A DNA stretch of 64,000 nucleotides from an uncultured cyanobacterium (GTDB lineage: Bacteria; Cyanobacteriota; Cyanobacteriia; Phormidesmidales; Phormidesmidaceae): positions 320,001 to 384,000 of the forward strand of contig CAWBZI010000007.1 in assembly GCA_963793265.1 (NCBI GenBank), read 5' to 3'. Position 1 is the first letter of the stretch; every line of letters begins with the position of its first letter. Position numbers and translations under genes: made by a program. This document shows, in pieces, positions 1,074-50,121 of this stretch. The notes under the pieces are model-generated. The model was given only the letters and a program-made list of their open reading frames with translations, ran no database searches and had not been told where the DNA came from.

Positions 1074-3215
1074 TTGGCAGATGAGGATGTGAATGTGGAT
1101 TTGACGACTGCGCTGAAGTGGCTGAACGCTGCGGTGATGAATGGTGTTGGGCATCCCTTGCGAGAGCCTGAGATTGTGATATTGAAGGGCACCTGGCGAG
1201 GGTTGACGTATGAGCAAATGGCAGGCGGATCGGACTACAGCACTAATTATCTGATGCGGGACGTGGCTCCTAAGCTATGGAAGCAGCTTTCGAGCGTGTT
1301 TGGGCGCTCGGTCGGCAAGACTAATTTTCGAGTAGCGCTAGAAGCCTACGCCGTTTCTAATAAGGCGCTTGCCTCTGAAATTGCTGCTTCGAACTTTGGC
1401 TTTACGCCCGATTTTGAAGCAGACGTGATGCATAGCCGAGAGCAAGGTCGAGATGCGTTTGAGGGGCCTGGAAGCTCAAAAAGAAGCTTGGACAGTGGTA
1501 GTGGAACGACAGGCACGGACTACAGGCATCCTTCTATGCTTGGAAATGCCTCAGCTAGCGGCGGATATCGTGGACTAGCGATGCCTGTAAGTTCGGAGGC
1601 ATTGATGTATGGATATGAAGATGAGCTGGCTCAGATCAAACAGTGGATTTGTGAGGGCATTGGAGAAAGCTCCCTCTTAGCAGGCACCTCTTCAGGTGTG
1701 CTAGTGGGCCTGTGGGGCCTGTGCGGCGTTGGTAAAACGCTGCTGGTTGAAAAGGCGATCGCTCAAGTCGGCGATCTTGTTGAAGGCGTTGTGTGGCGAT
1801 CGCTACAGTCTCAACCCAGCTTGAACGACCTGAGCGCCAGCATTTTATCCAGCTTGGGGATTCGGTTAGCTGAGGCTCAAGCCGCCATTGCGCCTGCTCA
1901 GCTGATCGCGCTGATGAACCAGCGATCGCTTCTAATTGTTTTAGAAGGGGCAGAGGCGCTGCTACAGCCCGGCGTGCTTGCAGGCGACTATCAGCCAGCG
2001 TTTCAGGCATACGGTGAGTTTTTTCAGTCGGTATTGGGATCGCGTAGCTGTGTAATTATGACAGGTATTGAAGGGCCTGCTGAGCTGGTGCGCCAGGGTA
2101 GCTATAGCCAGCGGCAAGGGGTGCGATCGCTTTATCTCAAGCGGCTTCCAGAAGCGGCTGCGATTTCCCTTTTGCAAGCTGAGTCGAATCAGCAAGCGTC
2201 TTCGGCTGAGCACTGGTCTGAGCTGATTGCCCGCTACCAGGGTCACCCGCTGGCGCTGAAGTCAGCCGCTCGGGTCATTCAAGAAATTTTTAATGGCCGC
2301 GTCGATCAGTTTTTGCAGCAGGGGTCTGTATTATTCACAGATATCTTGCGGCTGCTCTCGCCGTCTTTTGAACGACTGTCTTCATCTGAATTAGATATTC
2401 TCTACTGGTTAGCCAGCCAGGAAGCGCCGATTAGCTTGGTTGAACTTCAGCAGACGCTCCCGAGATCTGTGGCGGCGAACGAACTGATCTCAGCGCTGGA
2501 CTCATTGAAGCAGCGATCGCTCCTGAGCATCCATACTGATAGCGAGGATCTGCCGACCTTCTATTTACCTGCGCTGATAAAAGCGTATGCGGTGCATCGA
2601 TTTATGAATCGATTTGGTGAAACGCTTACCGCTGACGCCATCGGAGAAAAGCGCAGCAGCGAGCCGTTAACCCGATTGAGCGCCCAACCAGCCTATAGCG
2701 ACCCCAATCAGGTGATTGACTTAAGCCCGCCAGCCGCCACGCGCGTACAGCTCAGCCAGTGGTTTCAGGGACAGTTTGAAGCCGATTGGCAGTCGCTAAA
2801 CCGTCTATTTGAGGCGTCTGCGCGTCCGGCACTGCGGCTGCGTAATGCTTATCATCTGCAAGATGAAACATTTATTAAGCGCTGTAAGTCAATTGTTTTA
2901 TCTAAAGAAAATCAGGCCAGCAGTCGGGTAAGTGCCTCTAAACCGGCGGCGGTACTCCTAGTGGCTATTCATCAAGATGGTGAGAATCTGTACAAAATCT
3001 GCGTACAGGCTCAGCCTCCCAAAGACGCTAGCGTGCTGCCCGAGCACCTGGCGCTAAAGCTACTAGATAATCAGCAGACTGTTTTGGCTACGGTCGTTGC
3101 TCAGCAAGACGACACGTTCATTCAACTGCCCTACTTTCGAGGGGCCGTGGAAGAACCTTTCTCCATTGAGCTGAGCCTGGCAGATAGTCATCATACAGAG
3201 ACTTTTGTGATATAA
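1074..3215 (+). CDS. STAND/NB-ARC-type NTPase with N-terminal HTH and C-terminal DUF1822-like domain
   Basis: N-terminal 'ILKGTWRGLTYEQMA...PKLWKQLS..GKTNF' HTH typical of cyanobacterial NB-ARC proteins; Walker A GLCGVGKT; 'GHPLALK' GxP motif; C-terminal 'LSQWFQGQFEADWQ...LPEHLALKLLD...IQLPYFRG' resembles DUF1822. Start codon (TTG 1074 or GTG 1089) uncertain. Confidence 0.75.
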   Translation: MADEDVNVDLTTALKWLNAAVMNGVGHPLREPEIVILKGTWRGLTYEQMAGGSDYSTNYLMRDVAPKLWKQLSSVFGRSVGKTNFRVALEAYAVSNKALASEIAASNFGFTPDFEADVMHSREQGRDAFEGPGSSKRSLDSGSGTTGTDYRHPSMLGNASASGGYRGLAMPVSSEALMYGYEDELAQIKQWICEGIGESSLLAGTSSGVLVGLWGLCGVGKTLLVEKAIAQVGDLVEGVVWRSLQSQPSLNDLSASILSSLGIRLAEAQAAIAPAQLIALMNQRSLLIVLEGAEALLQPGVLAGDYQPAFQAYGEFFQSVLGSRSCVIMTGIEGPAELVRQGSYSQRQGVRSLYLKRLPEAAAISLLQAESNQQASSAEHWSELIARYQGHPLALKSAARVIQEIFNGRVDQFLQQGSVLFTDILRLLSPSFERLSSSELDILYWLASQEAPISLVELQQTLPRSVAANELISALDSLKQRSLLSIHTDSEDLPTFYLPALIKAYAVHRFMNRFGETLTADAIGEKRSSEPLTRLSAQPAYSDPNQVIDLSPPAATRVQLSQWFQGQFEADWQSLNRLFEASARPALRLRNAYHLQDETFIKRCKSIVLSKENQASSRVSASKPAAVLLVAIHQDGENLYKICVQAQPPKDASVLPEHLALKLLDNQQTVLATVVAQQDDTFIQLPYFRGAVEEPFSIELSLADSHHTETFVI

Positions 3216-3222
3216 GCGCTGC

Positions 3223-5721
3223 ATGAAAAAAGTTATCTTGAACTTAGGCGGTGGCACCCTTATCGAAGGGTGTAAGAACGTTATTGGCGAATTTTTGGGC
3301 GAGTCTTTGAGCCAGCCTCAGAATCAGACCCAAAGCCAACCCTTGGGGCCGTCATCAACAGCGCAGAGTCAGGCATATCCTATTCGCTTCACCGGGGAGC
3401 TACCGGCAGCGCCTCAGCTAGCGGCCACGCAAACGCGGTGGCAGCACCTCTATGCCGCTCGCAATCAAGATCAGGCGCTACGCATTCATCTGCTTGATGT
3501 AGAAGGACTTCGCTACTCTGAAAATGATTTTAATCAGTGCTGTTTGCAGCTTGTTAATCAGTTTGAAGCCTGGCTAAATACGCCTGAATTGCTGCAGATT
3601 GATCGCGCCTTGAGAACCGAGTTCAAGCGCAGCGATGACGTTCAAATTATCTTAGAAACCGCCGACCTTCAGCTCTGTAAGCTGCCCTGGCATCTGTGGC
3701 CGCTTTTTGAAGATTATCCTCAAGCCGAGCTAACGTTTGGCGCGCTCGACTGGCGACCGCTGCCCAACCGGCCATTCAATCACCGCAAAAATCAGGGGCC
3801 TAGTGCATCCTCACGAATCCTAGCCACGCTGGGCAATCACGATGGCCTCGACTTGGCGGCTGATTTGACCACGCTCAATCATCTGCAAAACACTCATCTC
3901 AACGTTCTTGATACCCCTACGCTCAACCAGCTACACGAGCATCTTTGGGAGCCTGAAGGATGGGATATTTTCTTTTTTGCAGGCCACAGCCAAACCGAAG
4001 GAGAAACCGGCATTATTAATCTCAATCAGCATGAGCGGCTGAGCATTGAGCAGATTAAATATGCGCTGAGCCAGGCGATCGCGAACGGTCTAAAAATTGC
4101 CATCTTCAACTCCTGCGACGGGCTTGGGCTCGCCAGGCAGCTTTCGAGCCTGCAAATTCCGTATGTGGTGGTGATGCGAGAGCCGGTACCTGATGCGATC
4201 GCTCAGCAGTTTTTACGCTATCTACTCGCAGCTTTTACCCAGGGCCTGCCGTTTCACTTAGCCATGCGTGAAGCGCGTCAGCGGCTCGCTGGGCTAGAAA
4301 ATGAAGCGCCCTGTGCAAGCTGGCTGCCGGTTATTTGGCAAAATCCTACCGCGCCTGCGATCTACTGGCAAACCCTACAGCCGCAGGCTGATGGAGGAGT
4401 TAAGACGGCAAAGAGATGGGGGCGATCGCACGCTAAGCAGTTCGCTTTCAAAACTTTAATTGCCAGCGGTATTGTACTGGGCATTCGAGCGCTGGGGCTG
4501 CTAGAGCCGGTTGAACTAATAGCTTATGACCAGCTTATGCGGCAGCGGCCCACCGAATCAGTCGATCAAAGAACCGTTGTTGTCGAAGTCACTGAAAAGA
4601 CAACTAGCCAGTATGGCTACCCGCTACCTGACGAACAGCTAACGGCATTAATCGACCGGATAAATGATGCGCAGCCTTTGGCAATCGGATTGGACTTGCA
4701 CAGAGCGCGGCCCAATCCTTCTAGAGCAGAAAGCAGCTTAATCACTGATGTAGAACCTAGCTACGATAAGTTTTTGAGACAGGTAGAAAGCACACCCTCT
4801 CTGTTCTTAGTTTGCTTTTATGACAGCAAGGACAAGAACTACGGGACGCCAGCTCAGCTTTCTGAGGAGGTTCGCGCCTATCAAGTCGGCTTTAGCGACC
4901 TGCCGATTGATCGCTTTACTCAATTTGGCGGTAATCCTCGCAGCGATGTCACCGCAGCGGGCAGCAATGCGCGAATGGGCGAAATGGTGCGCCGCCAGTG
5001 GCTCTCTTACGATCCTAATCTCTCACCCGCTTCACCAAACTGTGAAACGCCCTATAGCCTGAGCTTTCAGCTTGCCTTTGAATATTTAGACCAGGCTGGG
5101 GTAGAGCCGCTGACGGTCACAGACGATGAACGCTGGCAGTTTGGCCCGGTTGTTTTTGACTGGCTACCGCAGCGGGTAGGCGCTTATCAGCAGCTAGCAG
5201 CGCACAGCAGCCAGGTTTTGCTGAACTACCGAGCGAACCAGCCAGGCGAAGAAATTACGGTTGAGCAGCTCATGTCAGACGGGTTTGATCCGCAAATGCT
5301 GACCGACAAAATTGTGCTCATTGGCTACACCGCGCCTGTTTCTAAAGACTATTTTGAAACGCCTTATGGGCCAATGGCTGGGCTGTGGGTGCACGCTCAT
5401 ATGGTGAGCCAACTGCTGAGCGCGGTGCTAGATGACAGGCCGATGATACATGGGCTAGCTCAATGGCAGAGCTGGCAGTGGGGCGACTGGGTGTGGATTG
5501 CGATGTGGGGATGTGCAGGGGGCTACGTGGGCATTGCGATTAAGCGGCGATCGTACTGGCTGCTGAGTCTCCTGCTAGGGGGAGGCGCGCTGTATCTATG
5601 GTGTTGGATAGCCTTAATATCCGGGCTGTGGCTACCGCTGGTACCGAGTGCTTTAGCTGCGACCGGCTCAACCGTTTGGCTACGGGCAAATCGCCCGTCT
5701 GACAAGAAGCTTGCGGATTAG
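3223..5721 (+). CDS. CHAT (caspase-like) + CHASE2 domain membrane protein
   Basis: CHAT dyad motifs FFAGHS and FNSCDG; CHASE2 motifs 'ELIAYDQLMRQRP', 'IGLDLHR', 'KIVLIGYTA..D.F.TP...G..VHAH.VSQL'; three C-terminal TM helices. Confidence 0.88.
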   Translation: MKKVILNLGGGTLIEGCKNVIGEFLGESLSQPQNQTQSQPLGPSSTAQSQAYPIRFTGELPAAPQLAATQTRWQHLYAARNQDQALRIHLLDVEGLRYSENDFNQCCLQLVNQFEAWLNTPELLQIDRALRTEFKRSDDVQIILETADLQLCKLPWHLWPLFEDYPQAELTFGALDWRPLPNRPFNHRKNQGPSASSRILATLGNHDGLDLAADLTTLNHLQNTHLNVLDTPTLNQLHEHLWEPEGWDIFFFAGHSQTEGETGIINLNQHERLSIEQIKYALSQAIANGLKIAIFNSCDGLGLARQLSSLQIPYVVVMREPVPDAIAQQFLRYLLAAFTQGLPFHLAMREARQRLAGLENEAPCASWLPVIWQNPTAPAIYWQTLQPQADGGVKTAKRWGRSHAKQFAFKTLIASGIVLGIRALGLLEPVELIAYDQLMRQRPTESVDQRTVVVEVTEKTTSQYGYPLPDEQLTALIDRINDAQPLAIGLDLHRARPNPSRAESSLITDVEPSYDKFLRQVESTPSLFLVCFYDSKDKNYGTPAQLSEEVRAYQVGFSDLPIDRFTQFGGNPRSDVTAAGSNARMGEMVRRQWLSYDPNLSPASPNCETPYSLSFQLAFEYLDQAGVEPLTVTDDERWQFGPVVFDWLPQRVGAYQQLAAHSSQVLLNYRANQPGEEITVEQLMSDGFDPQMLTDKIVLIGYTAPVSKDYFETPYGPMAGLWVHAHMVSQLLSAVLDDRPMIHGLAQWQSWQWGDWVWIAMWGCAGGYVGIAIKRRSYWLLSLLLGGGALYLWCWIALISGLWLPLVPSALAATGSTVWLRANRPSDKKLAD

Positions 5722-5746
5722 ATATTTAGATAGAATTTGCGAGATT

Positions 5747-6514
5747 ATGTTTAATTTTTCCACTCGGGTTTATGTTCAGTGGCTGCTAATTGTAAATATG
5801 GTGTTAGGGGCGATCGCTGTACCGCTGGCGGCTGTGGCGCGATCTCAAAACGTTCAGCCGCCAGCCGCCCGTCATCAGGCCCGCTCTCAGGTGCGTCGTC
5901 AGGTTCGTCGTCGCCCGCGCCCACCGCGCAGGCTACCGCCCAATCGGGTGCAGCCGGGGGGCGGCTTAGACGTGGCCGCGCAGTCTTGCGATTCTAGCCG
6001 CCAACCGCTGACGGCTTTAGTCCCTGTGGAAAATCCAGTCTTTACAGCGTCGGCCTATCCCACATTTCTCTTTCACTTAACAGACGATCCCGATCAGATT
6101 GAGCGAGCCGAGTTTATGCTGCTGGATGCTGATGAGAAAGAACAGATCTACGCTATGCAGTTCGAGCCCACGCAAGCAGGCATTGTTAGCATTTCGCTGC
6201 CTGCTGAGGCCGCCTACGCCCTTGAGCCTGAGCAGGCTTATCACTGGTATTTGAACATTCATTGTAAAAGGAGCACGGCGGTTTTATCTGTAGATGGTTG
6301 GGTGCAGCGGCTAGGCGAAGCCGAGAGCATAGAGGCGCGTGACGAGTCGGGTTTGCCAGTGGTTTGGTATGACGCGATCGCTCAGGTGGCCACTGAATTA
6401 GCGGTGTCTTCACAGGCGACCAGTCAGCAAGAATGGGCAGCGCTACTGGCAGCCGTTGGGCTAGAGAGCGCAGCAGCAGCGCCCATTGCAGGCACTGCCA
6501 TATCTCTTGAATAG
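5747..6514 (+). CDS. DUF928 domain secreted protein
   Basis: Signal peptide, 'GGG...C....LTALVP', 'PTFLF', 'YHWYLNIHC', 'WYDAI...W..LL..VGL' motifs; usual position after CHASE2 genes. ATG 5747 preferred over TTG 5711. Confidence 0.85.
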   Translation: MFNFSTRVYVQWLLIVNMVLGAIAVPLAAVARSQNVQPPAARHQARSQVRRQVRRRPRPPRRLPPNRVQPGGGLDVAAQSCDSSRQPLTALVPVENPVFTASAYPTFLFHLTDDPDQIERAEFMLLDADEKEQIYAMQFEPTQAGIVSISLPAEAAYALEPEQAYHWYLNIHCKRSTAVLSVDGWVQRLGEAESIEARDESGLPVVWYDAIAQVATELAVSSQATSQQEWAALLAAVGLESAAAAPIAGTAISLE

Positions 6515-10469: not shown

Positions 10470-10661
10470 GGCTAGAACCTTGTACAAAATTGCTGGGGCT
10501 GACAGAGTTGATGAACGATAACGTACATTTGTATTATTTTCAAGAGAATTCTGCTATTTTCTACGTATTCGTGAGAATTCTTAAGGTGGCTCTTGCACAG
10601 ATAGTCGGCATTGCCGATAATACAAGCTATCTACTTAATCACTGACTTGTACAGATATCTA

Positions 10662-11006
10662 ATGGTTAATGTGTCTATTGTAAAATCTGAGCTGTTAGAA
10701 AAAATGGTTCAAGCCATCGTCAAGGTAGCTGAGCCTGAGAAAATAGTTCTCTTTGGCTCTAGAGCAAAAGGAACTGCTCAATTCGATTCTGATTATGACT
10801 TTTTAGTCATCAAATCAAAGTCATATTTTGAGAAATATAGTCGTCGTAAAGAGTCTGGTAATTTGAGGCGAGCGCTGGCGAAGTTTGAAGTGTCGAAGGA
10901 TATTTTAATGTACAGCGCTGACGAGGTAGAGCAGAGACAGAACTGGAGAAACGATATTGTTTCTTGCGCCTTGAAAGAAGGTCAGGTGCTCTATGAACGA
11001 TCTTGA
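10662..11006 (+). CDS. Minimal nucleotidyltransferase (MNT) antitoxin-like protein
   Basis: GS-X10-DXD motif (GSRAKGTAQFDSDYD); C-terminal 'EGQVLYE'; overlaps the HEPN gene. Confidence 0.88.
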   Translation: MVNVSIVKSELLEKMVQAIVKVAEPEKIVLFGSRAKGTAQFDSDYDFLVIKSKSYFEKYSRRKESGNLRRALAKFEVSKDILMYSADEVEQRQNWRNDIVSCALKEGQVLYERS

Positions 11007-11424
11007 GAAGGCTCAAGAACTCTTTAAAGCTTCTGAAAGAGAACTGAGAGGTTTGATTGGAATGCTTCAAGTTAAGGACATGTTTTCCGATGAGTTTTTT
11101 GGACAACACGTACAACAGGCAACCGAAAAACTTCTAAAAGCATGGATAGCGGCACTTGGCGAAGATTTTCCATACACACATGATTTGGAGCGTTTGCTTC
11201 AGCAGCTAGACGATTTACGGGGTGATGTTGCTGACTATTGGAGCTTGGTAGATTTTACCGACTTTGCTGTGAGGATCAAATATGAATCTTTGCTAGCAGA
11301 TGTCGAACCTATTGAACGAGAGGCTGTAGTTGCACAAGTTCAAAGTCTTTATGACCGAGTAAAGACCTTATTGCAGCCATCAAATGAAGGATCATTCACG
11401 GAACAAGAACTGCCTAAAAATTAG
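10993..11424 (+). CDS. HEPN domain protein (MNT/HEPN pair)
   Basis: 'QQATEKLLKA' and 'YTHDLERL' HEPN motifs; overlaps the 3' end of the MNT gene. Confidence 0.85.
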   Translation: MNDLEKAQELFKASERELRGLIGMLQVKDMFSDEFFGQHVQQATEKLLKAWIAALGEDFPYTHDLERLLQQLDDLRGDVADYWSLVDFTDFAVRIKYESLLADVEPIEREAVVAQVQSLYDRVKTLLQPSNEGSFTEQELPKN

Positions 11425-14376: not shown

Positions 14377-15075
14377 ATGAATGAAGGATCGATTCGCTTA
14401 GACAGTTTAAGAATCGGCTCACAAGAGCTAGACGAGATAACAGGCTTAGATATTAGCTATATGACAATGGGATGGGCTTACCGTCAGCGTGCGTTTGAGC
14501 CTGAGCATCGATGGGCGTTGTTGATCGATCAAGTGCTGAGCGGCTGTATGGCGCTGGTGCTGTGCATTCCGATTATGGTAACGCTGGTGCGGGCGGCAAG
14601 TGGCGACGATGTGCAGGCTGTGTGGCGATCGCTGCCGATAGGGTTTTTGGGTGCGATCGCGCTTACCCTTGTCTGGAATCTCTTTCGCTGGCAAGCAGGC
14701 AAGCGTCTGATCACGCTAAGCCACCTACTCGACGAAATTGACCGCTTTAACGAGATGGTTGTCGCCGTCGAAATTTTAGAAGAACTTGGCTCAACAACAC
14801 AGCCGCTCACGCTAGAAAACCGACATGACGTGATAGAAGCGCTTCATTTAACCCGAGAGAATTTGGTATATGGGCTCTCTACAGAGCGAATTATGCGCAG
14901 GCACCAGCGGTTTATGGCCCGCCGTCAGGAAATGTTCTCTAGCATTGAGAGAAACTTAGTCACACTGCATCTCTTAGATGTCAGTAATGAGGCCAGCGAG
15001 TATGGCCAACTGCTCAATGAGGCCATCATGATTGGTATTAGCGTCCGTGAAGAATTAGCAAAAGATTCTCTTTAA
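14377..15075 (+). CDS. Hypothetical 2-TM protein with helical C-terminal domain
   Basis: 232-aa ORF in a tight operon; two TM segments followed by a coiled region. Confidence 0.7.
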   Translation: MNEGSIRLDSLRIGSQELDEITGLDISYMTMGWAYRQRAFEPEHRWALLIDQVLSGCMALVLCIPIMVTLVRAASGDDVQAVWRSLPIGFLGAIALTLVWNLFRWQAGKRLITLSHLLDEIDRFNEMVVAVEILEELGSTTQPLTLENRHDVIEALHLTRENLVYGLSTERIMRRHQRFMARRQEMFSSIERNLVTLHLLDVSNEASEYGQLLNEAIMIGISVREELAKDSL

Positions 15076-15089
15076 TTTCGCCTACTATC

Positions 15090-16496
15090 ATGTTTTCTAC
15101 ATCCTCCTACTTCCTTCGTTTCACTTCAGTTTCTGCAGTCGCTAGTGCCCTTGCAGTAGTTGGCTCAGTCGCTATCCCGATGATTGTGCCCTGTCGCACC
15201 GCAGCCTGGGCAAATCACGACCGGCATGGACGAGAGCAAACGGAGCAAACAACACATCTTTTTGGTCGAAATGCTCAAAGCGGTAGAGATGGCAGCTCGG
15301 GTCGTGATGGACAATCTGGGGCTGACCAGACTATCTATGTGCAAGGCGCTCCTATGCGCTTAGATCTCTCTGGCCGCGATGGCGAAGCGGGCCGCGATGG
15401 CGAAGATGCTAGGCGACCTCGCTGCGAAAGACAGCCTCGGAACAGGCGCTATCATCAGCGGGCCGCAAGCGGTGGCGACGGCGGCGACGGGGGCGCAGGT
15501 GGTGACGGCGGCAATGGGGGCCTTTTGACAATTCACTATGCAAACCCTGAAGACTTGCGGCAGGTACTTGTGAATGCGGCGGGCGGTAAGGGCGATCGCG
15601 GCGGACGCGGCGGGCAGGGAACTAACGGCTGCAACTGTAGTGACTATCGGTGGACGGTTGAGGTGTGTGATGAGGAGACTTGTCACGATGAGCACTATAC
15701 CTGCCAAGCGGGACGCGATGGTGAAGATGGACAGAATGGTCGAGACGGTGCAGCAGGCGAACTGGGCTATGTCACGTTGATTGATCAGCTTGCAGCGCTA
15801 CCCTCCGAAAGACCTAGCCAAACAAAATCAATAGAGCGGCTGGCTAACGGTGAGCCGGTCAGATTATCTCGTAATCTTTGGGAAATTCGCAGCGGCGCGA
15901 GCGGACTTTTGGCCCCTGGTTCTGTTGTTCAAGATGATTACAAAGCCTATAAAGGCTTCATAGAACAACAGTTTTCTTTAGACTGGCAGGCACCGCAAGA
16001 CTTTGACGCGTTTGATGATGAAGTGAATCTGTCACTCGCAGAAGATGGCGAGGTTGAGATGATTTTTCCTGATTCGTATTGGCTGTTGGGCGAGACTCTC
16101 GAACAAGTGGATTCAACTACCTATCGCGTAGAGGGCATTTTACCAATTGATGATGTCACCCGGCTAGCTATGGGTCGGGTGACAGGTCGCAGCCGCACGT
16201 TTGAAGTGAGTGCGATTGATCAAGCTCAGCTATCAGACGAATTAGACACTGAGTTTGAGGTACGCTACAGCACCTCAAACAACGAGGGGCGTCGCTACGA
16301 GGTTAAGTACGAGGGGCCCGTGCCTGCTGATTTGATTGTGCGCGATCACAACAAATTCACGCTAGCGTTGGGGCGACTGCCGATTCGCTCTCAGCTTATG
16401 AGTGGCGGTACTGAGGCGCGCGTGGAGCTGATTGCTACCCGCAGCTATGGCCGCAATTCTAAGCAGCAAACGCTTACTTGGTCGGGGCGTTTGTAG
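15090..16496 (+). CDS. Secreted collagen-like (Gly-X-Y) protein
   Basis: Signal peptide; several G-X-Y runs (GRDGSSGRDGQSG, GGDGGDGGAGGDGGNGG, GRDGEDGQNGRDG) around a Cys cluster. Confidence 0.8.
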   Translation: MFSTSSYFLRFTSVSAVASALAVVGSVAIPMIVPCRTAAWANHDRHGREQTEQTTHLFGRNAQSGRDGSSGRDGQSGADQTIYVQGAPMRLDLSGRDGEAGRDGEDARRPRCERQPRNRRYHQRAASGGDGGDGGAGGDGGNGGLLTIHYANPEDLRQVLVNAAGGKGDRGGRGGQGTNGCNCSDYRWTVEVCDEETCHDEHYTCQAGRDGEDGQNGRDGAAGELGYVTLIDQLAALPSERPSQTKSIERLANGEPVRLSRNLWEIRSGASGLLAPGSVVQDDYKAYKGFIEQQFSLDWQAPQDFDAFDDEVNLSLAEDGEVEMIFPDSYWLLGETLEQVDSTTYRVEGILPIDDVTRLAMGRVTGRSRTFEVSAIDQAQLSDELDTEFEVRYSTSNNEGRRYEVKYEGPVPADLIVRDHNKFTLALGRLPIRSQLMSGGTEARVELIATRSYGRNSKQQTLTWSGRL

Positions 16497-16518
16497 ATAG
16501 GCCGCTTTGTTGCGCTTT

Positions 16519-17826
16519 TCAAATCCAGGAAGGTAGCCACCATCTATGGCTTAAGCTCTCTGGCGTAAGCGGTGCGCCTAAGCTCAGCGGGAGCCAAAAG
16601 AGAAATGCTAGGGCGATCGCAATCACCATTGCCAGTCCAACTGTTTTCACCCAGGCAGGCGATCGCCCGCTTGGCATACACAGCCACTCACTCAACAGCC
16701 AAGCGAGCCCCATAAAGCTAAAAATAGCCGAGGGCATATACAAATAAATAAAAGTGCAGCGTTTCACTAAAATCCAGGGCAACCAGTTAGCCAAATAGCC
16801 CGCTAAGAGATAAGTGCTAAGACTATCGGTAGCTGCTTTGCGAGCTTTCGCTTGGGCATATCTCTTAAGTGAAAGTACAACAATAGCTGCGCTAGAAAGC
16901 CACCACAAAATAGGATTTCCCATATTGTTGACGGTGTAGACCTGCTGGCCTGCGTCTTCGTACCAGTAGGCAATGGGTTTGATTAAAAGCGGCCAGGTGT
17001 ACCACTTTGAGCAGGCTGAGTGGCCGGTAGTCGGGAGGCCCTGGTGAAAGGTGAGTAGGGATTGGTGTAGGGTTAGTAGGTTTTGGCTGGTGAGATGAAT
17101 GTGGGGTAGCCAGATCAGAAGGTATGTGATGAGTGGAACTAAAAGGGTGTAAAAGAGAAGATTGAACCGGCGGGTTTTGTTCTTTGGGCGGCATAGTTCC
17201 CAGCAGATGAGGCTAAGGACGAAGCCTAGACCGTTCCACTTTGTTGCGATCGCACCTCCCAAACAAATCCCCGCTAACAGCCTCAGGCCGTCTCTAACAA
17301 AAGGAGACTGAGCCTTTGAGTGCAGCCATAGCCAGTGCCCCAAAAAGCCAAAAAACACCGTGTATATGTTGATTAGCCCGTAGCGGGATTCGGTGATAAA
17401 AAGGCCATCTATGGCAACAAAGCTGCCTGCTAAAAGCGCAAACGTGATTGCTCTAGCTCGGTGACGTGAATGGCTAAACCCTTGGCTCAACAGTCGAGCA
17501 ATATCTGTGACAACTAAAGGAATCAGGCTTCCTACTAGCGCGTTCATCCATCGGTAGGAGAATGGCGATTCGACATTGAAGAGGCGACCAAAAAGACGAT
17601 TGCTGCTGAACTGATCGCTTAGCCATATGGCAGCCGCAATGAAGTATTTGCCCAAAGGTGGATGAGCATCAAACTGAGGCGCTTGTTCTAAATAAGCCTG
17701 AGCAAATTTGACAAAGTAGACCTCATCAAACACCAGATCGCTAAAGCGAGAAAGCTGCCAAAATCGGAGGCCAAAGCTCAGAAGTGCGATCGCTAACAGT
17801 CCGAGGCAATAGAACGCTCTGAGCAC
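16519..17826 (-). CDS. PMT-family (GT-C) phospholipid-carrier-dependent protein glycosyltransferase
   Basis: 'VFDEVYF', 'FDAHPPLGK', 'ESRYGL', 'KWNG', 'S.WYTWP', 'GNPILWW', 'FIYLYMP' motifs; polytopic membrane protein. Confidence 0.88.
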   Translation of the reverse strand: MLRAFYCLGLLAIALLSFGLRFWQLSRFSDLVFDEVYFVKFAQAYLEQAPQFDAHPPLGKYFIAAAIWLSDQFSSNRLFGRLFNVESPFSYRWMNALVGSLIPLVVTDIARLLSQGFSHSRHRARAITFALLAGSFVAIDGLFITESRYGLINIYTVFFGFLGHWLWLHSKAQSPFVRDGLRLLAGICLGGAIATKWNGLGFVLSLICWELCRPKNKTRRFNLLFYTLLVPLITYLLIWLPHIHLTSQNLLTLHQSLLTFHQGLPTTGHSACSKWYTWPLLIKPIAYWYEDAGQQVYTVNNMGNPILWWLSSAAIVVLSLKRYAQAKARKAATDSLSTYLLAGYLANWLPWILVKRCTFIYLYMPSAIFSFMGLAWLLSEWLCMPSGRSPAWVKTVGLAMVIAIALAFLFWLPLSLGAPLTPESLSHRWWLPSWI

Positions 17827-17841
17827 AATCCGGGCACAAAC

Positions 17842-18771
17842 TTAGTTAATTTTGGGCTGCTGAACGGCTATTGTAGGGCCATTCAACCGCTTCACAACCC
17901 CCATACCCAAGCGAGTATTGCGGCCAATAGCGCAGTAGCGGGTGAAGTCGGCCAGGGTATTCACTCGTTTGATCGTCAGCGGGTCACTATCGCCTGCGAT
18001 GCGAAAGCTAATTTGTCCCGTGCAGCCAACAATCAGCTCAGGTGAGCTGCGTCGCAAGTTTCGGGTCACCTCGGTTTGAATATTGAAATTCACGGGGATA
18101 ATGTTGCTGATTAGGCTGGGTGCAAATACCAGACCACTGTAGCAATTCCATTGTTTTCTAAGCGAGTGAAAGACCACTTCGGCCGTGGGTAAAGGCGTGA
18201 GATAGCCCGCATTACTGAAGGCAGTAGGGGTTACAAACTGCAGGTGAATATCGCGATCGCAGCTAGAGGCGTGCTCATAAATATCACGGTAGCTACAGCT
18301 AGAGGCCCAGTCAATACCCGGTAAATCGGCGGCGATACTGGTGATGGTAACGCTGCTGGAACCTAAAGGAAAAGGCTCGTCTCGGAGCTGATTCCAAAGG
18401 AAAATGAGATGGTCGAAGAGGTCATCATCTAGAAAGGAAATTCGCCACCAGCAGGAGACGTTTGCCTGTAAAGCCTCTCTATGAGCGTACTGAAGCTGGC
18501 AGGTCTGTAACCTCGCTTGAGACTGCACTTTAGAGGGAAACAGGCGAACATTACTCTTGGACGAAGGCCGCGCTGGCCAGCTAACCCCTTCAGACTGAAG
18601 CGCACTTAAGGCGTAGGAACGGTTGCTTTTATCGCGCCGAAGAACATGGCCTAGCTCTGGATCTACCGCCTCTACTAGCTCAAAAAATAGCATCTGCAAG
18701 GAATAGCCCTGTAGATGATCCAGGCTGATAGAAGACTGGGTGACTAAGTTGAGCACAAGACTTTGGGGCAT
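17842..18771 (-). CDS. cas6: Orphan Cas6-like RAMP protein, probably degenerate
   Basis: 'SLVLNL', 'WWRISFLDD.LF', 'LQFVTPTAF', 'PLP..VF.SL...WN', 'G..G...F' and C-terminal G-rich loop AIGRNTRLGMG typical of cyanobacterial Cas6. Confidence 0.85.
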   Translation of the reverse strand: MPQSLVLNLVTQSSISLDHLQGYSLQMLFFELVEAVDPELGHVLRRDKSNRSYALSALQSEGVSWPARPSSKSNVRLFPSKVQSQARLQTCQLQYAHREALQANVSCWWRISFLDDDLFDHLIFLWNQLRDEPFPLGSSSVTITSIAADLPGIDWASSCSYRDIYEHASSCDRDIHLQFVTPTAFSNAGYLTPLPTAEVVFHSLRKQWNCYSGLVFAPSLISNIIPVNFNIQTEVTRNLRRSSPELIVGCTGQISFRIAGDSDPLTIKRVNTLADFTRYCAIGRNTRLGMGVVKRLNGPTIAVQQPKIN

Positions 18772-19108
18772 ACGTTCTATGCGAAGTATTCACGCAAACA
18801 TGTAGATAAACAGTGACAGCATGTGAGGCGGAAGGCTGTTAACCTCGGCCTAATTAAAAGATAGTCAGAAATAGCACCCTCAGAAAAAGACATAAAGGTA
18901 AGGAGAAAGTGTTAGAAAAATCGCTGGGTTCATCAAATCTTTAAACTAAAAGAACCTAAAAGGCTAGACTCTACTCAATCACATCTATTTCATATATCTA
19001 TGGAGCTTGATGTAAAGTTTTACTTTAAGCAAGCGATTGTACTTAGCCAATAAAGGCTATGACAGCTCGTCAACTGGGCTTTAGTCTTGAAAATAAGGTT
19101 TTAGAAAG

Positions 19109-20323
19109 ATGTGGCGAAGTATGAGTAAGCGCGCTATTTGGCAGGGCGTGATTTGGCTGGCGGCTGGGGTGACTTTTTTGTTGAGTCTGTGGATTGTGCT
19201 GCCCGGCACTAATTTATTTCTTTTGACCCTGGCGGTGGGGGCTCCTGAAATAAGCCCGCTTTTAGGACTCATAGCGCTCATTTTGCTAGTGCTGGCGCTG
19301 CGACTGTATCTTCGAAAGCATCCTCGAAAAAAAGGGTTTCGAGGACGCGCTTTTCGCCTGCTAGTAGCGATGCTGCTAGTGACGCTGACGCTGAGCAGCT
19401 TGCCCTTGTTGCAGCAACCCGGTGCGGTAGCCCAAGCGAATAGATCGATGGCGATCGCATTTCCCAATGCAACCCCAGCCGCGACGACTGCGCCCACCTT
19501 TAGCTGGCTTAATTTTGCCAGAGGCATCCCTACCCAAAACGTACGCTATCAGGGCCAAATTCCGTTTGCCTCACCGGACAATCAGCCTCTATTTTTAGAT
19601 ATTTATCAGCCGCCAGAGGTGGGGCAGTATCCGGCAGTGGTGACGATTTATGGGGGGAGCTGGAAACAGGGGAGCCCTGCGTCGAGTGAGAAGATTGGGC
19701 GATATTTGGCGGCTAGGGGCTACGTGGTGGTAGCGGTGGACTATCGACACGCACCTGAGCATCGCTTTCCAGCGCAGTTAGAAGATGTGCAGGCGGCTTT
19801 GGATTTTGTGTACGATCGCACCGATGAGTATGAAATTTTGCGCGATCGCATCGGCCTATTAGGCTGGTCAGCAGGCGCACATTTAGCCATGCTCGCAGGC
19901 TTCCAATCCTCACAAATCAAAAGCATCGTAGACTACTACGGCCCGGTAGATTTGGCGGCTGGATATGCAGATCCGCCGAACCCCGATCCAATAGATGTCA
20001 GGCAGGTGCTTTTAGCCTTTATGGGCGGCCCGCCGAGCGAGCTACCTGAAGCCTACGCAGTAGCTTCACCGATTACCTACGTAAACTCTGCTCAGCCCAA
20101 GACGCTGCCGCCTGTTTTACTCATTTACGGCGGGCGAGATCATCTAGTCGAATCGCGATTTGGCAGGCGGCTATACGAAGCCCTGATTGCATCCCAGAAC
20201 CTCGCCGTTTGGGTAAAAATTCCCTGGGCCGAACACGCCTTTGATTCGATATTTAATGGCGTTAGCAATCAGATGGCGCTGCACTTTATAGAGCGATTTT
20301 TGTCGCAAACACTGGGGCGCTAA
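19109..20323 (+). CDS. Membrane-anchored alpha/beta hydrolase (HSL-like lipase/esterase)
   Basis: YGGSW oxyanion motif, GWSAG nucleophile, D-H.V and AEHAFD. Confidence 0.88.
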   Translation: MWRSMSKRAIWQGVIWLAAGVTFLLSLWIVLPGTNLFLLTLAVGAPEISPLLGLIALILLVLALRLYLRKHPRKKGFRGRAFRLLVAMLLVTLTLSSLPLLQQPGAVAQANRSMAIAFPNATPAATTAPTFSWLNFARGIPTQNVRYQGQIPFASPDNQPLFLDIYQPPEVGQYPAVVTIYGGSWKQGSPASSEKIGRYLAARGYVVVAVDYRHAPEHRFPAQLEDVQAALDFVYDRTDEYEILRDRIGLLGWSAGAHLAMLAGFQSSQIKSIVDYYGPVDLAAGYADPPNPDPIDVRQVLLAFMGGPPSELPEAYAVASPITYVNSAQPKTLPPVLLIYGGRDHLVESRFGRRLYEALIASQNLAVWVKIPWAEHAFDSIFNGVSNQMALHFIERFLSQTLGR

Positions 20324-20483
20324 ACATCGGAGCGCTAGCTTGGTTCTTTAGCTCTGAGCTGTCTGCTTGTCTGACAGCTATGGCTAGCGCGCTTTCGGTG
20401 GTAGTCTTTTTGATACTCGGTCAATGTCGTCAGATTTAACGATCTGTTGGCTAAAACAAGGTGTATTCAACAAAGAGATAGTT

Positions 20484-21368
20484 ATGGCTGTGAGATTGCG
20501 AAGCGCACTGTCTGCTGGGTTACTTGGCGCACTGTTATCAGGCGTATTGAGTTCTCAGAATGCAAGGGCTGAAGGTGTAAAGGCTGAAAGTGCGATCGCT
20601 AAAATTCCGCTTCAAACTCGTAGCCTCAAAACGGCAGTAGAAATTCCTGAAGATGCCGAAGGCCATGCCAGTGCGCTGCCAACTTCTGCAGCTAAGGTCG
20701 GCAACGTTCGCCAAGAAATGACTGAGATTACAGAAGCCGACGGTACGACCGTAATTTTGCCGCCAGGCTACGAAGAAGGCCAGGCTTATCCAGCGCTAGT
20801 GCTGATGCCCTACACCAATCGCACTGCGCTCCATATGTTCAACTGGGGCATGTACGAAGCCTATCACCAGCGCACCGAAGGGTCATTCATTGTGATTATG
20901 CCGCCGGGCCAAGGTAGCTCAGCGAACTGGTCGGGCTCGGGGTGGGAAGCTTTGGTAAATGAGTACGAAGCTTACGTGCAGCAAGACTTAGAACCATTAG
21001 TAGCTAAGTATAATGTCGCGCCCGATCAGCTCGCGATTGGTGGCTTTTCGCTGGGTGGAGACTTGAGCTGGACGCTCAGCTTGCGTAACCCCGATATTTT
21101 TAGCGGCGCGATTGTGATGGGTAGCATGTCGAACTACCGCAATCCGCAAAGTGCCAGGCAGCTAGCGGGCAATGACTTTCGCTACTTTATGGTGATGGGC
21201 GGCTATGACGGTAATCGAGGCGCTATGCACAATGCGTTAGATAGCTTAGAGGCGCATGATATTGACTATCACTATGAAGAGGTTAGTAATGCGGGCCACG
21301 GCGATTTGCCAGCGCAAATGCAGCCCGATCTATTTTTGTCGGGTATGGACTACGTTTTTTCGGAATAA
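20484..21368 (+). CDS. Secreted alpha/beta hydrolase (esterase-like)
   Basis: Signal peptide; GFSLGG nucleophile elbow; C-terminal GH. Confidence 0.78.
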   Translation: MAVRLRSALSAGLLGALLSGVLSSQNARAEGVKAESAIAKIPLQTRSLKTAVEIPEDAEGHASALPTSAAKVGNVRQEMTEITEADGTTVILPPGYEEGQAYPALVLMPYTNRTALHMFNWGMYEAYHQRTEGSFIVIMPPGQGSSANWSGSGWEALVNEYEAYVQQDLEPLVAKYNVAPDQLAIGGFSLGGDLSWTLSLRNPDIFSGAIVMGSMSNYRNPQSARQLAGNDFRYFMVMGGYDGNRGAMHNALDSLEAHDIDYHYEEVSNAGHGDLPAQMQPDLFLSGMDYVFSE

Positions 21369-47152: not shown

Positions 47153-48445
47153 CTAACGATAATCCTGTGTTTGAATATCCATCAGTCTTGCTTCTGGTCT
47201 CTTAAATCGATCAAGCTGTTGCTCTAGAAACTGACGATTCGCCTTCAAATGCTCTACATTCTCATCATCTAGCGGATAAAGCAGCGCCATTCTTAATGCC
47301 TGAATTACTGCTGAGGTCACGTTGTACATAGAGCGCTGAAACGTAATTCCAAGCTGAATCAGCGCGTCGTCCTCCCCTCGCCCGTGCTGCTGATACATCT
47401 CTACTAGGTAATCTGGCAGAAAGTGCAGCATATCCTGCATGAGCAGCGTCGGCGGAATGCCCGCGCTGCCTACCGGAAAAACGTCTGCATAGAGAATGCC
47501 GTAGTGAAAGTCTTTTTGCTCGGCTGGAACCTGCCCGGCCTGGGCGTTGTAAGACTTTGTGCCTCTAAAGGGGGCAGTGCGATAGAAGACTGCTTCTACA
47601 TAGGGCAAAGCTGCCTCGTATAGCCAGGTAAAGCCCTGAGACTTAGGGATAATCTCAAAGCACTCATTACCAATATAAACGTGGTGGTAGATGGGACGAC
47701 CGGCTACTGCAAAAATGCCGTTTGAAATAAAGTCCATTGCCTCCGGGACAGTGGTCATTTTGCCTTCGTCGTAAAGGTCGCTCATCTCGAAGAATACGGG
47801 GGCCATCACCTCCCAAAACAGTCCTAAATTGGCGTAGTAGGAGAGTCTTTTGACCTGCTCTAAAAACATGTCAGGGAACAGCTTATAGAGGCCGAGCATC
47901 ACCGGATTGTTTTTGAAATAGGCGCGAATGGCGCGATCGCTATTCTCCCTATACTCCTCACTATCTAAATACTCATTAAACTTGGGATTGATATCCTCAT
48001 GCCAGAGCATTGCCTGCATACAGGCTTCAGCAAACTCCATATTCACCCGGTCGTGCCACAGGTGATGAAACAGCTTCGGCAGCTTGCGCTTAACTTCGCC
48101 CTCTTTCATAAAGGCTCGCAGTTCAGGATGCGCATCGCCTACACCGCGCCATATGCGCAAGTCGGCCTCATCTCCCGCATAGGCATTTTGACGATCTAAG
48201 TACTCGTCAGAAATGAAGTATTTGAAGGCGGGTAGAGGATTAAGGAAAACGCGCTCGGCGATATAGAGCAAGTCTCGCCAATAGAAGTCCATCGGCACCG
48301 CGTAGGCTTTGTATATACCGATAATTTGCTTGAGGTTTTCAGGCGTATCGGGCAGCATTGAGCCGCCTGCTTCGAGCCGATGAATAATATCGGCAAATTC
48401 GTGGCTAGAAGGTGGCAGCGTTTTTTTGAGGGTGGCAGTTTCCAT
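47153..48445 (-). CDS. cupA: CO2 hydration protein CupA (ChpY)
   Basis: 'LEAGGSMLPDTPENL', 'HHLWHDRVNMEFAEAC', 'PFRGTKSYNAQA'; 430 aa from ATG 48445; operon context. Confidence 0.92.
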   Translation of the reverse strand: METATLKKTLPPSSHEFADIIHRLEAGGSMLPDTPENLKQIIGIYKAYAVPMDFYWRDLLYIAERVFLNPLPAFKYFISDEYLDRQNAYAGDEADLRIWRGVGDAHPELRAFMKEGEVKRKLPKLFHHLWHDRVNMEFAEACMQAMLWHEDINPKFNEYLDSEEYRENSDRAIRAYFKNNPVMLGLYKLFPDMFLEQVKRLSYYANLGLFWEVMAPVFFEMSDLYDEGKMTTVPEAMDFISNGIFAVAGRPIYHHVYIGNECFEIIPKSQGFTWLYEAALPYVEAVFYRTAPFRGTKSYNAQAGQVPAEQKDFHYGILYADVFPVGSAGIPPTLLMQDMLHFLPDYLVEMYQQHGRGEDDALIQLGITFQRSMYNVTSAVIQALRMALLYPLDDENVEHLKANRQFLEQQLDRFKRPEARLMDIQTQDYR

Positions 48446-48500
48446 GGGGGGTTTAGAGAGAGTAGGGAGTGGGGGGTTGGAGGTTAGAGAGCTTAAAAGG

Positions 48501-50015
48501 CTAAAGCGCGTTGGGAGCGCGAGCAGATGAAACGGTTGTTTTGTGTAGTGAAGCTTCAATTGCTGGCTGTATCAGCTTTACAGAGGTTGCCTCGCTCCAG
48601 TGCACTAGCCAGTTAGGCTGAAGTCCTAAGACAACAACCAAAGCCGCTAGTATCAACGCGGGCGTACGCTCGCTGACGGTGACTTTGTTGTAGTTCGCCG
48701 TTTGATTGTTCAACCGACCAAAACAGGTGCGATTGATCAAAATCACGAAATACACAGCCGTTAAGCCGGTACCTACCACACATAAGAGGGTCGCCACTGG
48801 AAACACGCTATAGCTGCCCTGAAAGACCAGAAATTCGGTGATAAAGCCAACCAGTCCCGGAATCCCAGCGCTCGCCATACCGCTTAGTACCAGCAGCGCG
48901 CTCACCATCGGCAGCCCTCGTAGCGGGTTCATTAATCCATTGAGCTGATCGAGCTGCCGGGTGCCGACTTTAGCTTCCACCACGCCAACTAGGTGAAACA
49001 ACAGCGCCAAAATCAAACCGTGAGACACCATCTGAGAAATCGCCCCGACCAGGCTCAGCTCTGTGAACGCTGCGCCGCCGAGCATCACGTAGCCCATGTG
49101 CCCAATCGAGCTGTAGGCCACCATGCGCTTGATGTCTTTTTGGGCGATCGCGGTTACCGCACCATACAAAACGCTCGCCGCCGCCCATACCGCTAACAAT
49201 GGAGAAAGCGCCGCCCAGGCATCGGGAAACAGCCCCAGGCCAAATCGAAAAATCCCATACGTGCCCAGCTTAGCCAATACGCCGCCTAGCATAATCGCCA
49301 CGGGTGGAGACGCACTCACATAGGTATCGGGTAGCCAGGTATGAAAAGGAATCAGCGGAATCTTGATGCCAAAGCCGACTAGCAGTATGGTCAGCAGCGT
49401 GATTTGAGCCGGTAGCGGTAGCTGATTTTGGAGCGCCTGCTCGTAGGAAAAGTCTAGGGTGCCGCCAAGGAGAACCGTGCCGATAAAGCCAGCGAAAATA
49501 AAAGCGCCTGCGATCGCGGTATACAACAAAAACTTCGTCGCCGCATACTCTCGCTTCTCCCCACCCCAAATCGAAACCAAAAAGTAGAGCGGCACCAGCT
49601 CGATTTCAAACAGCAGGAAGAACAACAGCAGGTTTTGTGCCAAGAACGCACCGGCTACACCGCCACTCACCAGCAGCATCAGCGCATAGAAAAACCGAGG
49701 GCGCTCCTGCGTTTTTGAACTGCTGCAAATGGCAATCCAGGTCAGCAAGCTGTTGAGCGCAATCATCATCAGCGAGAGCCCATCAACTGCCAAGTCGTAG
49801 TTTAGCCCCAGCGAGGGTAGCCACGACATAAACTCTCGCATTTGAAAGTCCGCGCTACCCATATCAAACTGCGTGAACAGTCTCATTGTCCAAAGCAGTG
49901 CGGTGCCTGAAAATGCCAGCGCCACGCCTCGAACCTGAGCGGCGTTGAGCTTTAGTGGGAGAAAGGCAATCAGCAGTGCGCCTAATGTCGGCAACCAGAT
50001 TAAGGGGCTCAGCAT
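48501..50015 (-). CDS. ndhD3: NDH-1 subunit D3
   Basis: NuoM-family motifs 'IKIPLIPFHTWLPD', 'KLGTYG', 'KRMVAYSSIGHMG'; lies between ndhF3 and cupA. ATG 50015. Confidence 0.9.
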   Translation of the reverse strand: MLSPLIWLPTLGALLIAFLPLKLNAAQVRGVALAFSGTALLWTMRLFTQFDMGSADFQMREFMSWLPSLGLNYDLAVDGLSLMMIALNSLLTWIAICSSSKTQERPRFFYALMLLVSGGVAGAFLAQNLLLFFLLFEIELVPLYFLVSIWGGEKREYAATKFLLYTAIAGAFIFAGFIGTVLLGGTLDFSYEQALQNQLPLPAQITLLTILLVGFGIKIPLIPFHTWLPDTYVSASPPVAIMLGGVLAKLGTYGIFRFGLGLFPDAWAALSPLLAVWAAASVLYGAVTAIAQKDIKRMVAYSSIGHMGYVMLGGAAFTELSLVGAISQMVSHGLILALLFHLVGVVEAKVGTRQLDQLNGLMNPLRGLPMVSALLVLSGMASAGIPGLVGFITEFLVFQGSYSVFPVATLLCVVGTGLTAVYFVILINRTCFGRLNNQTANYNKVTVSERTPALILAALVVVLGLQPNWLVHWSEATSVKLIQPAIEASLHKTTVSSARAPNAL

Positions 50016-50080
50016 AGTTTTATAGACAAGTTCTAAATTATATTGGCGTTGTTGAAAGATCCTGTGGGGCGCGAGGCGCA

Positions 50081-50110: not shown

Positions 50111-50121
50111 TGGGGGGCAGG

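Follow-up and report, generated by a model that had tools for sequence, protein, structure and literature searches.

The gene examined here, termed cas6o, lies in a 64-kb window of an uncultured cyanobacterial genome (G000, C7:320001-384000); the window is the whole stretch of DNA that was analysed. The gene encodes a Cas6-like protein, is transcribed divergently from an esterase gene and is followed on its own strand by a gene of the protein O-mannosyltransferase (PMT) family. The initial annotation had described an intact Cas6-like open reading frame (ORF) and, 15 nt away on the same strand, a PMT-family ORF with a GTG start, and the coordinates bear this out: the cas6o stop codon occupies positions 17842-17844, and the GTG codon begins at 17826. 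It had also reported neither a second cas gene nor a repeat-spacer array within the 64 kb. Among the window's 50 non-nested ORFs of at least 100 aa, Pfam detected no Cas domain except that of cas6o, and neither Tandem Repeats Finder nor a direct-repeat search found an array in the window, in agreement with that description. The label of orphan, however, is accurate for the window and not for the genome, which on other contigs carries a complete type I-D locus and three arrays.

The cas6o protein matches PF19308 (CRISPR_Cas6_N; 2.9e-35, 122 bits, residues 1-166) and PF10040 (CRISPR_Cas6; 4.2e-15, 56.7 bits, residues 177-293), both above the cut-offs, and its top PADLOC model is Cas6d (PDLC02042; 7e-80, residues 1-295). 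Against the NCBIfam equivalog TIGR01877 it scores 58.4 bits, marginally below the cut-off of 58.65, whereas the CRISPR-linked Cas6 of the same genome scores 66.7. An AlphaFold2 model based on a 64-sequence alignment (mean predicted local distance difference test [pLDDT] score 88.5; predicted template modelling [TM] score 0.85) is confident except at residues ~61-92. When this model was compared with solved structures using Foldseek, the best match was Thermus thermophilus Cas6B (4c9d; E 3.5e-19; TM score 0.80 normalised to the target), and the top 10 matches were Cas6 chains only, which identifies the tandem ferredoxin/RNA recognition motif (RRM) fold. The less confident region coincides with the low-complexity insertion in the first RRM that the initial annotation had pointed out; it spans residues ~61-92, has no counterpart in canonical Cas6d and is modelled with a pLDDT of about 50, and the median distance from Q59 to the CWWR motif is 47 residues in the cas6o clade described below versus 30 in canonical Cas6d. 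The cas6o protein is thus a full-length member of the Cas6 superfamily that is descended from Cas6d.

The genome offers its own standard of comparison. On contig C1, the type I-D locus consists, in order, of an 889-aa ORF in the cas10d position, csc2, csc1, cas3', cas6, cas4 and cas1; the 889-aa ORF matched no NCBIfam model. This locus lies between an array of 26 repeats and one of 55, and contig C6 carries an 11-repeat array; the three arrays represent three repeat variants, each with the stem TCCCG-N5-CGGGA and with CTGAAAC as the handle. The resident Cas6d (G000:C1, L004:15957-16829) is 37% identical to the cas6o protein over its full length and at the aligned sites reads GRHLHALF...ILHG, where the cas6o protein reads GYSLQMLF...VLRR. 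The contrast that had been proposed between GYSLQMLF...LRR and the type I-D motif GRHLHALF...LH is therefore present, and the canonical copy of the same genome agrees with it.

The replaced residues are a property of a whole clade. A protein search gave 132 relatives, of which the best 120 are listed; a 211-aa fragment (P0079) was dropped, and the remaining 119 sequences were used for the tree and the column counts. A quick IQ-TREE search divided them into three groups: a cas6o clade of 76, 32 canonical Cas6d sequences and 11 that we call intermediate. The cas6o clade (76 clusters) was monophyletic, with a Shimodaira-Hasegawa-like approximate likelihood ratio test value of 100 and a stem length of 0.78. 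His24, His26, His45, Arg186, Asp191, Arg284, Lys285 and Met288 are invariant in canonical Cas6d (32/32). At position 24, the cas6o clade has Ala (42 of 76) or Ser (23) and never His; at position 26 it has Gln in 74 of 76 and His in one; and at position 45 it has Arg in 73 of 76 and His in none. These counts (0, 1 and 0 of 76, against 32/32) confirm by alignment the suspected loss of the catalytic histidines. Position 186 is Glu in 41/76 and Lys in 15/76, and Arg is not among the five commonest residues there, which account for 65/76; Asp191 is also replaced. Position 284 is mostly Cys, Ser, Tyr or Ile (Arg in 6/76), and position 285 is Asn in 59/76 and Lys in 1/76. The window protein itself has Ser24, Gln26, Arg45, Ser186 and Leu288 at these positions.

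Other residues are conserved in the cas6o clade only: Asp47 and Arg205 (both 76/76), His121 (74/76), His176 (73/76), Arg269 (71/76), Gln27 (67/76) and, less strictly, R46 (54/76). Judging from the alignment, the cas6o pocket looks rebuilt rather than decayed, because the replacement residues are themselves nearly invariant. The scaffold has been kept, with 69 conserved columns identical in the cas6o clade and canonical Cas6d, including WWR, TPT, G283, G289 and G291; these three glycines of the G-rich loop are invariant both in the 64-sequence alignment and in all 119 sequences counted. The initial annotation had drawn attention to Ala at the first glycine of this loop. That substitution is indeed present here, but it is not a feature of the clade, in which residue 281 is G in 32 sequences, P in 28, S in 10, A in 5 and N in 1; it is a local variant found in 5/76.

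Roles for these positions were taken from the T. thermophilus structures, which served as the reference instead of Synechocystis Cas6-1; the excerpted text of PMC5741207 does not name the catalytic residues of the latter. T. thermophilus Cas6B (TTHB231) is the best sequence match among solved structures (1.4e-9). According to the excerpted text of PMC3902920, its active site consists of His23, His42 and Tyr256, and roles are also given there for Arg22, His37 and Arg129 of Cas6A. In a single-sequence and a profile-based HMMER alignment alike, Gln26, Arg45 and Leu288 of cas6o fall opposite the three Cas6B residues. Cas6A Arg129 aligns with cas6o position 186, with a chain-to-residue offset of +4 that was checked against the Arg83/Gly85 pair named in the same excerpts. 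Arg129 is described there as a stem-recognition residue whose replacement (R129A) reduces binding ~260-290-fold, and the cleavage defects given are ~17,000-fold for Cas6A H37A and ~300-fold for Cas6B H42A. According to these excerpts, helix alpha1 and the alpha1-beta2 and alpha5-beta12 loops form the boundaries of the Cas6A pocket; the matching elements of our model are helix 23-36, residues 37-52 and the G-rich loop at 277-292, and they contain the majority of the clade-specific changes. The coordinates of these and the other features are collected in Table 1.

Table 1. Features of the cas6o locus (positions in the window) and loci of the sister clade
Feature	Coordinates	Strand	Basis or description
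cas6o, solo gene, Cas6d derived	17842..18771	-	Intact ORF, 309 aa, ATG start, PF19308 and PF10040
N-terminal RRM domain of cas6o (Cas6_N, residues 1-166)	18274..18771	-	PF19308 match
C-terminal RRM domain of cas6o (residues 177-293, includes residue 186)	17893..18243	-	PF10040 match
Codon 26 of cas6o (Gln)	18694..18696	-	Alignments with canonical Cas6d and T. thermophilus Cas6B
Codons 45-47 of cas6o (Arg-Arg-Asp)	18631..18639	-	Alignments with canonical Cas6d and Cas6B
G-rich loop AIGRNTRLGMG of cas6o (residues 281-291)	17899..17931	-	64-sequence alignment and 119-sequence counts
Variable low-complexity insertion of cas6o (residues ~61-92), predicted disordered	18496..18591	-	Gap in canonical paralogue, pLDDT 48-55
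Conserved unstructured block of ~70 nt upstream of cas6o, promoter/leader candidate	18875..18947	-	11-locus alignment
BD-FAE-type alpha/beta hydrolase (esterase) gene, divergent from cas6o	19109..20323	+	PF20434, 2.8e-43
PMT-family (GT39-like) membrane glycosyltransferase gene	16519..17826	-	435 aa, GTG start, PF02366 and PF16192
Candidate promoter-like site in cas6o 3' end, upstream of PMT gene	17870..17897	-	Consensus scan, 9/12 matches
Sister-clade loci	L039:6001-6864, L040:5971-6846, L041:5989-6855, L042:6001-6867, L043:3121-3999		

The cas6o gene was found in 26 of the 46 genomes of its GTDB genus (G000 included), whose members are named Phormidesmis sp. or unclassified marine cyanobacteria in the sources. 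Of these, 24 have copies at 53-75% identity; G156 and G011 carry divergent copies that are ~40% identical to the window's and 71% identical to each other and that occupy the same esterase-side locus. At the family and order level (173 genomes, the order being one family in our collection), copies above 53% identity were confined to this genus, and a class-level sample of 16 other families gave canonical-level matches only.

Carriage of cas6o does not follow carriage of type I-D CRISPR-Cas. Csc2 (TIGR03157) was found in 14/46 genus genomes: in 6 of the 26 cas6o carriers (not found in 20) and in 8 of the 20 noncarriers (not found in 12). Deeper checks were made in five carriers with assemblies of 1-20 contigs and 95-98% completeness, where absence means that a gene was not found with these queries. 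None of the five gave a Cas1 match, and none gave a PF10040 match other than cas6o itself. Four of the five gave no match to repeat-associated mysterious proteins (RAMP), and the fifth, G015, has three. The type I-D repeat pattern occurred 0-6 times in the five genomes and 8-12 times in the reversed control, and thus there was no excess. Likewise, no cas genes or arrays were found near cas6o at 11 genus loci of 8-13 kb, using BLAST with four window proteins and Pfam for the immediate neighbours only. The gene is thus present in relatives without detected CRISPR-Cas, with no Csc2 found in 20/26 carriers and no Cas1, RAMP or second Cas6 match in four well-assembled ones. Beside these counts stands an observation in the closest relative, G020, where a CRISPR leader followed by a single type I-D repeat, with no spacers, lies at ~901.5 kb on contig C2 (L037:1440-1520). 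The leader closely resembles the array leaders of the window's genome, and G020 gave no Csc2, Cas1 or RAMP match; the leader plus repeat is either what remains of a lost array or a repeat that stands alone.

The pattern of presence and absence fits an ancestral cas6o gene with repeated losses rather than sporadic gain. G080 retains a relic (L055:4091-4201) of 37 N-terminal codons with an in-frame stop, located between the esterase and PMT genes; it is 73% identical to the window's cas6o protein, and the conserved upstream block is still there. Shorter relics lie between the esterase gene and a pirin gene in G007 (L060:4169-4333), and the G008 copy is frameshifted. The latter is the sole frameshift observed, and the reading frame is intact in 26/27 copies in spite of divergence down to ~40% identity; 21 of these were checked to be free of stops, and the remainder were judged by their open frames. 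Nei-Gojobori estimates of the ratio of nonsynonymous to synonymous substitution rates (dN/dS) for the three least saturated pairs were 0.093 (dS 0.98), 0.17 (dS 1.17) and 0.14 (dS 1.77), and cas6o is under purifying selection. Pairwise cas6o distances in 16 genomes were correlated with the distances of the adjoining esterase (Mantel r 0.52, with none of 5000 permutations as high), and the mean p-distance was 0.47 for the cas6o protein and 0.39 for the esterase. Two of the checks that the initial annotation had proposed came out in its favour: dN/dS values of 0.09-0.17 indicate purifying selection, and the fixed locus beside the esterase gene, together with the Mantel correlation, supports vertical inheritance. 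Its description of the gene as domesticated is consistent with the fixed chromosomal position, with selection and with the occurrence of the gene where no CRISPR-Cas genes were found.

The gene also has an upstream element of its own. The conserved block lies 56-214 nt upstream of the cas6o start codon at 11 loci, is unique in the genome (nhmmer E 1.6e-15; the next match has E 4.2) and showed no consensus fold on either strand. When 16 further cas6o loci, 5 of them outside the genus, were searched, the block was found in 9 of the 11 genus loci, including the copy in G154 that has no esterase neighbour. Of 19 further esterase-side loci, only two had the block, one of them being the relic-bearing locus of G080; another of the 19, that of G011, has cas6o and lacks the block. 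The block belongs to cas6o, because it is kept at cas6o loci and is rare at other esterase-side loci. From its sequence we read it as a putative cas6o promoter plus leader; a TTGATG-17-TAACAC arrangement can be seen by eye, although it was not flagged by the consensus scan. The possibility that the block is a conserved small ORF was ruled out by eye, from 1-nt indels and an early stop in one orthologue.

Neighbouring genes were read directly at 23 cas6o loci in 22 genomes and by coordinates at four more, giving 27 loci. The esterase gene belongs to the genus core (44/46 genomes) and divergently adjoins cas6o at 25/27 loci. The PMT gene is a single copy in the genome and matches PF02366 (119.9 bits) and PF16192 (125.1 bits), both above the cut-offs; its product scores 37.9 bits against NF058602, the NCBIfam model for bona fide protein O-mannosyltransferases, for which the cut-off is 800. 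By these scores the product is a family member whose substrate specificity is not assigned by the equivalog. A PMT gene follows cas6o at 9/23 loci (G000, G020, G016, G019, G017, G024, G162, the second copy in G154, and G135), pirin follows it at 11 and another gene at 2, and one locus is unreadable at a contig end. Upstream of the esterase gene in 18 genus genomes that lack cas6o, PMT is directly adjacent in 9, pirin in 4 and neither in 4, and one is cut off. PMT and pirin hold their positions with or without cas6o. The pairing of cas6o with PMT is a local gene order and not a conserved partnership, because PMT keeps its place whether or not cas6o is there. No terminator-like site was found between the two genes; the evidence for the promoter-like site in the 3' end of cas6o is weak, as such sites were no more numerous than in shuffled sequences. 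PADLOC gave no defence-system link for the PMT gene, the esterase gene or the partner protein of the sister clade described below. The G154 bin holds two cas6o copies (L051, G154:C39; L052, G154:C106), one accompanied by the esterase gene and pirin and the other followed by PMT without an esterase neighbour; either the gene was duplicated or the bin is mixed (contamination, 2%).

Several further observations were made around these subjects. The sister, intermediate clade is Cas6d-like and also solo and occurs in genera g23, g20 and g27 of the same family. Its members have lost the equivalent of His45 and partly retain the HLH motif, and no cas genes were found near the loci. At 5/5 loci, the Cas6d-like gene is convergent with a gene for a conserved protein of ~230 aa, membrane-like by eye, which had no Pfam match and no homologue in the window's genome; at the g20 and g27 loci, an adjoining 444-aa gene matches type II methyltransferase models in PADLOC. 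The surroundings in the window are ordinary chromosomal genes, including those for two-component systems, a P-type ATPase and CO2-uptake NDH-1 components. A ChpXY CO2-hydration gene and two Proton_antipo_M (NdhD/NdhF-type) genes at 47153-51984 (-) form an NDH-1 CO2-uptake cluster, which marks the window as core cyanobacterial chromosome. An MNT-HEPN toxin-antitoxin-like pair, in which a nucleotidyltransferase gene (Polbeta/NTP_transf_2) adjoins a HEPN gene, lies at 10611-11424 (+), and DUF1822, CHAT-CHASE2 and DUF928 genes, a trio that recurs in cyanobacteria, follow one another at 1074-6514 (+). Converging on the PMT gene is a 468-aa ORF (15090-16496, +) with Gly/Asp/Arg-rich low-complexity repeats, a weak collagen-like match (E 0.053), a signal-like N terminus and no family assignment.

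From the fold and its retained glycines, the replaced residues, the selection, the fixed locus with its control region, the presence in carriers where CRISPR-Cas was not found and the dispensability of the gene, we consider it an even call that Cas6o was exapted as an RNA-binding protein, has ceased to process type I-D repeats and now works on some host RNA. It can be envisioned that a Cas6d derivative left CRISPR and settled in the chromosome of one cyanobacterial genus as a resident gene. Its scaffold of RRM domains and G-rich loop would still bind structured RNA, whereas the acid-base chemistry of the histidines would have been abandoned and the type I-D repeat would no longer be read; the protein may then act on host RNA as a binder, either as a regulator or as a chaperone.

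There are several points that weigh against this proposal. The loss of R186, R284 and K285 could mean that RNA binding has been weakened rather than redirected. A crenarchaeal Cas6 (PDB 3zfv) reportedly cleaves without a histidine, and a missing histidine is therefore no proof of inactivity. The gene is absent from 20/46 genus genomes, so it is dispensable. The tree comes from a quick search, and all cas6o pairs other than the three used for dN/dS are saturated at synonymous sites. A fuzzy whole-genome search for the type I-D repeat core returned 93 matches inside the three arrays and, outside them, 2 with two mismatches and 57 with three, that is, no solitary type I-D-like repeat outside the arrays; an Rfam scan of positions 15000-21000 gave one chance-level match only. 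No candidate target RNA emerged from the repeat, Rfam or upstream-fold searches, and no RNA run containing the cas6o locus was found among the listed public runs.

The alternatives that lie closest to an exapted RNA binder retain a function on host RNA. With rather less confidence, we tentatively entertain a neofunctionalised Cas6d whose pocket was rebuilt into a strictly conserved site for recognising, and perhaps cutting, a host RNA outside CRISPR; the new site would comprise Q26-Q27, R45-R46-D47 and N285, along with the new residues H121, H176, R205 and R269. The main rival, possible although unlikely, is that Cas6o is still an endoribonuclease that processes non-CRISPR host RNA with a rebuilt active site, in which Arg45 and Arg46 would stabilise the transition state and His121 or His176 might be the acid or base. 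The pocket set is equally conserved and not drifting (Q26 in 74/76, R45 in 73 and D47 in 76), the two new histidines are near-invariant (74/76 and 73/76), and in the excerpts of PMC3902920 Cas6B H42A is still active, with a defect of only ~300-fold; however, Gln, Arg and Leu now stand opposite the Cas6B active-site trio of His23, His42 and Tyr256.

Readings that tie cas6o to CRISPR or to its neighbours fare worse. The initial annotation had suggested a trans-acting CRISPR RNA (crRNA) binder as one option. Such a noncleaving binder of crRNA or repeats, conceivable in genomes such as G000 that carry both cas6o and type I-D, could serve as a decoy or hold back crRNA maturation or the assembly of Cascade. 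It would find a type I-D locus and three arrays of three repeat variants in the window's genome and a leader with one repeat in G020; moreover, a type III-associated Cas6 negatively regulates the type I-B system in T. thermophilus (excerpts of PMC12102369). We nevertheless regard this as improbable, with Csc2 in 6/26 carriers compared to 8/20 noncarriers, four well-assembled carriers without Cas1, RAMP or second Cas6 matches, and repeat pattern counts at or below control; in addition, the stem-hairpin and G-rich-loop contact residues that are invariant in Cas6d are replaced, often with reversed charge (E186 in 41/76). It is also highly doubtful that cas6o and PMT form a functional operon, for example, one in which Cas6o controls the PMT mRNA and hence envelope glycosylation. 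The operon link proposed initially has in its favour the shared strand, the 15-nt spacing with no terminator-like site between the genes, the recurrence of this order in G020, G016, G019, G017 and G024, where the gaps are 3-130 nt, and same-strand, adjacent or overlapping genes in G162, G135 and the second G154 copy. It fails on the wider sample: PMT follows cas6o at 9/23 loci only and pirin at 11, nine genus genomes without cas6o have PMT and the esterase gene as immediate neighbours, and the upstream block travels with cas6o and not with PMT. Finally, that cas6o is a functionless, decaying remnant of a lost CRISPR-Cas locus is scarcely credible. The gene is missing from 20/46 genus genomes, there are relics in G080 and G007 and a frameshift in G008, and the catalytic residues are gone; however, frames are intact in 26/27 copies at identities as low as ~40%, dN/dS is 0.09-0.17, the clade-specific residues are invariant or nearly so, the locus and the upstream element are conserved, and the p-distance of 0.47 is near that of the core esterase (0.39).

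To our knowledge, Cas6 enzymes are known almost solely as crRNA-processing nucleases. The cas6o clade would thus be a clean natural example of the re-use of an immune-system RNase by its host, and it stands out in being selected in genomes without detectable CRISPR-Cas, in its new conserved residues, in its own upstream element and in the relics of its loss in sister species. If the neofunctionalised reading is true, a lineage-specific RNA-processing or regulatory factor was born from an immune nuclease; if so, and taken with the solo sister clade, Cas6d would have been exapted into host RNA metabolism, for which we found no report in the literature. The full-text literature yielded no description of a solo Cas6d family in cyanobacteria, subscription-only literature being outside the scope of the search, and queries for orphan, solo, standalone or noncatalytic Cas6 returned only the generic term "standalone Cas6" for type III systems. 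The case is tractable, since the protein is small and soluble, an active Cas6d paralogue encoded by the same genome offers an internal control and presence varies naturally within a genus, and it raises the question of which RNA a re-purposed Cas6 reads and how its specificity is rewired.

Among known systems, Cas6d proteins such as Cas6-1 (Slr7014) of Synechocystis sp. PCC 6803 have the same two Pfam domains and belong to the same length class as cas6o. Unlike these, cas6o lies away from cas genes and arrays, has an extra variable insertion after residue 60, has replaced His24, His26, His45, Arg186, Asp191, Arg284 and Lys285 (32/32 in canonical Cas6d) in its clade and also occurs in genomes in which type I-D genes were not found; it differs from an active, CRISPR-linked Cas6d in its equivalog score, its histidines and its genomic association. 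The best sequence and fold matches are T. thermophilus Cas6B (4c98/4c9d) and Cas6A (TTHA0078; 4c8y), and the stem-reading Arg129 of Cas6A is matched by Ser186 in the window protein and by Glu or Lys in the majority of clade members.

Regulatory or noncatalytic roles for Cas6 have precedents. The type III-associated Cas6-2 of T. thermophilus HB27 has, in the excerpted text of PMC12102369, a regulatory role beyond processing; it is active and CRISPR linked and acts on Cascade assembly, whereas cas6o is found mostly in carriers without Cascade. The phrase "a non-catalytic Cas6" appears in the excerpts of PMC3902920, and two Pyrococcus homologues were deposited in the PDB under the titles "One RAMP protein binding different RNA substrates" (3qjj) and "a Cas6-related gene" (3ufc). 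Both are among the fold matches of cas6o (ranks 26 and 30), at ~11-12% identity. The noncatalytic Pyrococcus homologues reportedly bind CRISPR repeat RNA without cleaving it and come from CRISPR-bearing genomes. Compared with these archaeal proteins, the cas6o clade is bacterial, derived from Cas6d, and present where no CRISPR-Cas system is detectable; by analogy, it is nonetheless these noncatalytic Cas6 homologues that Cas6o probably works most like.

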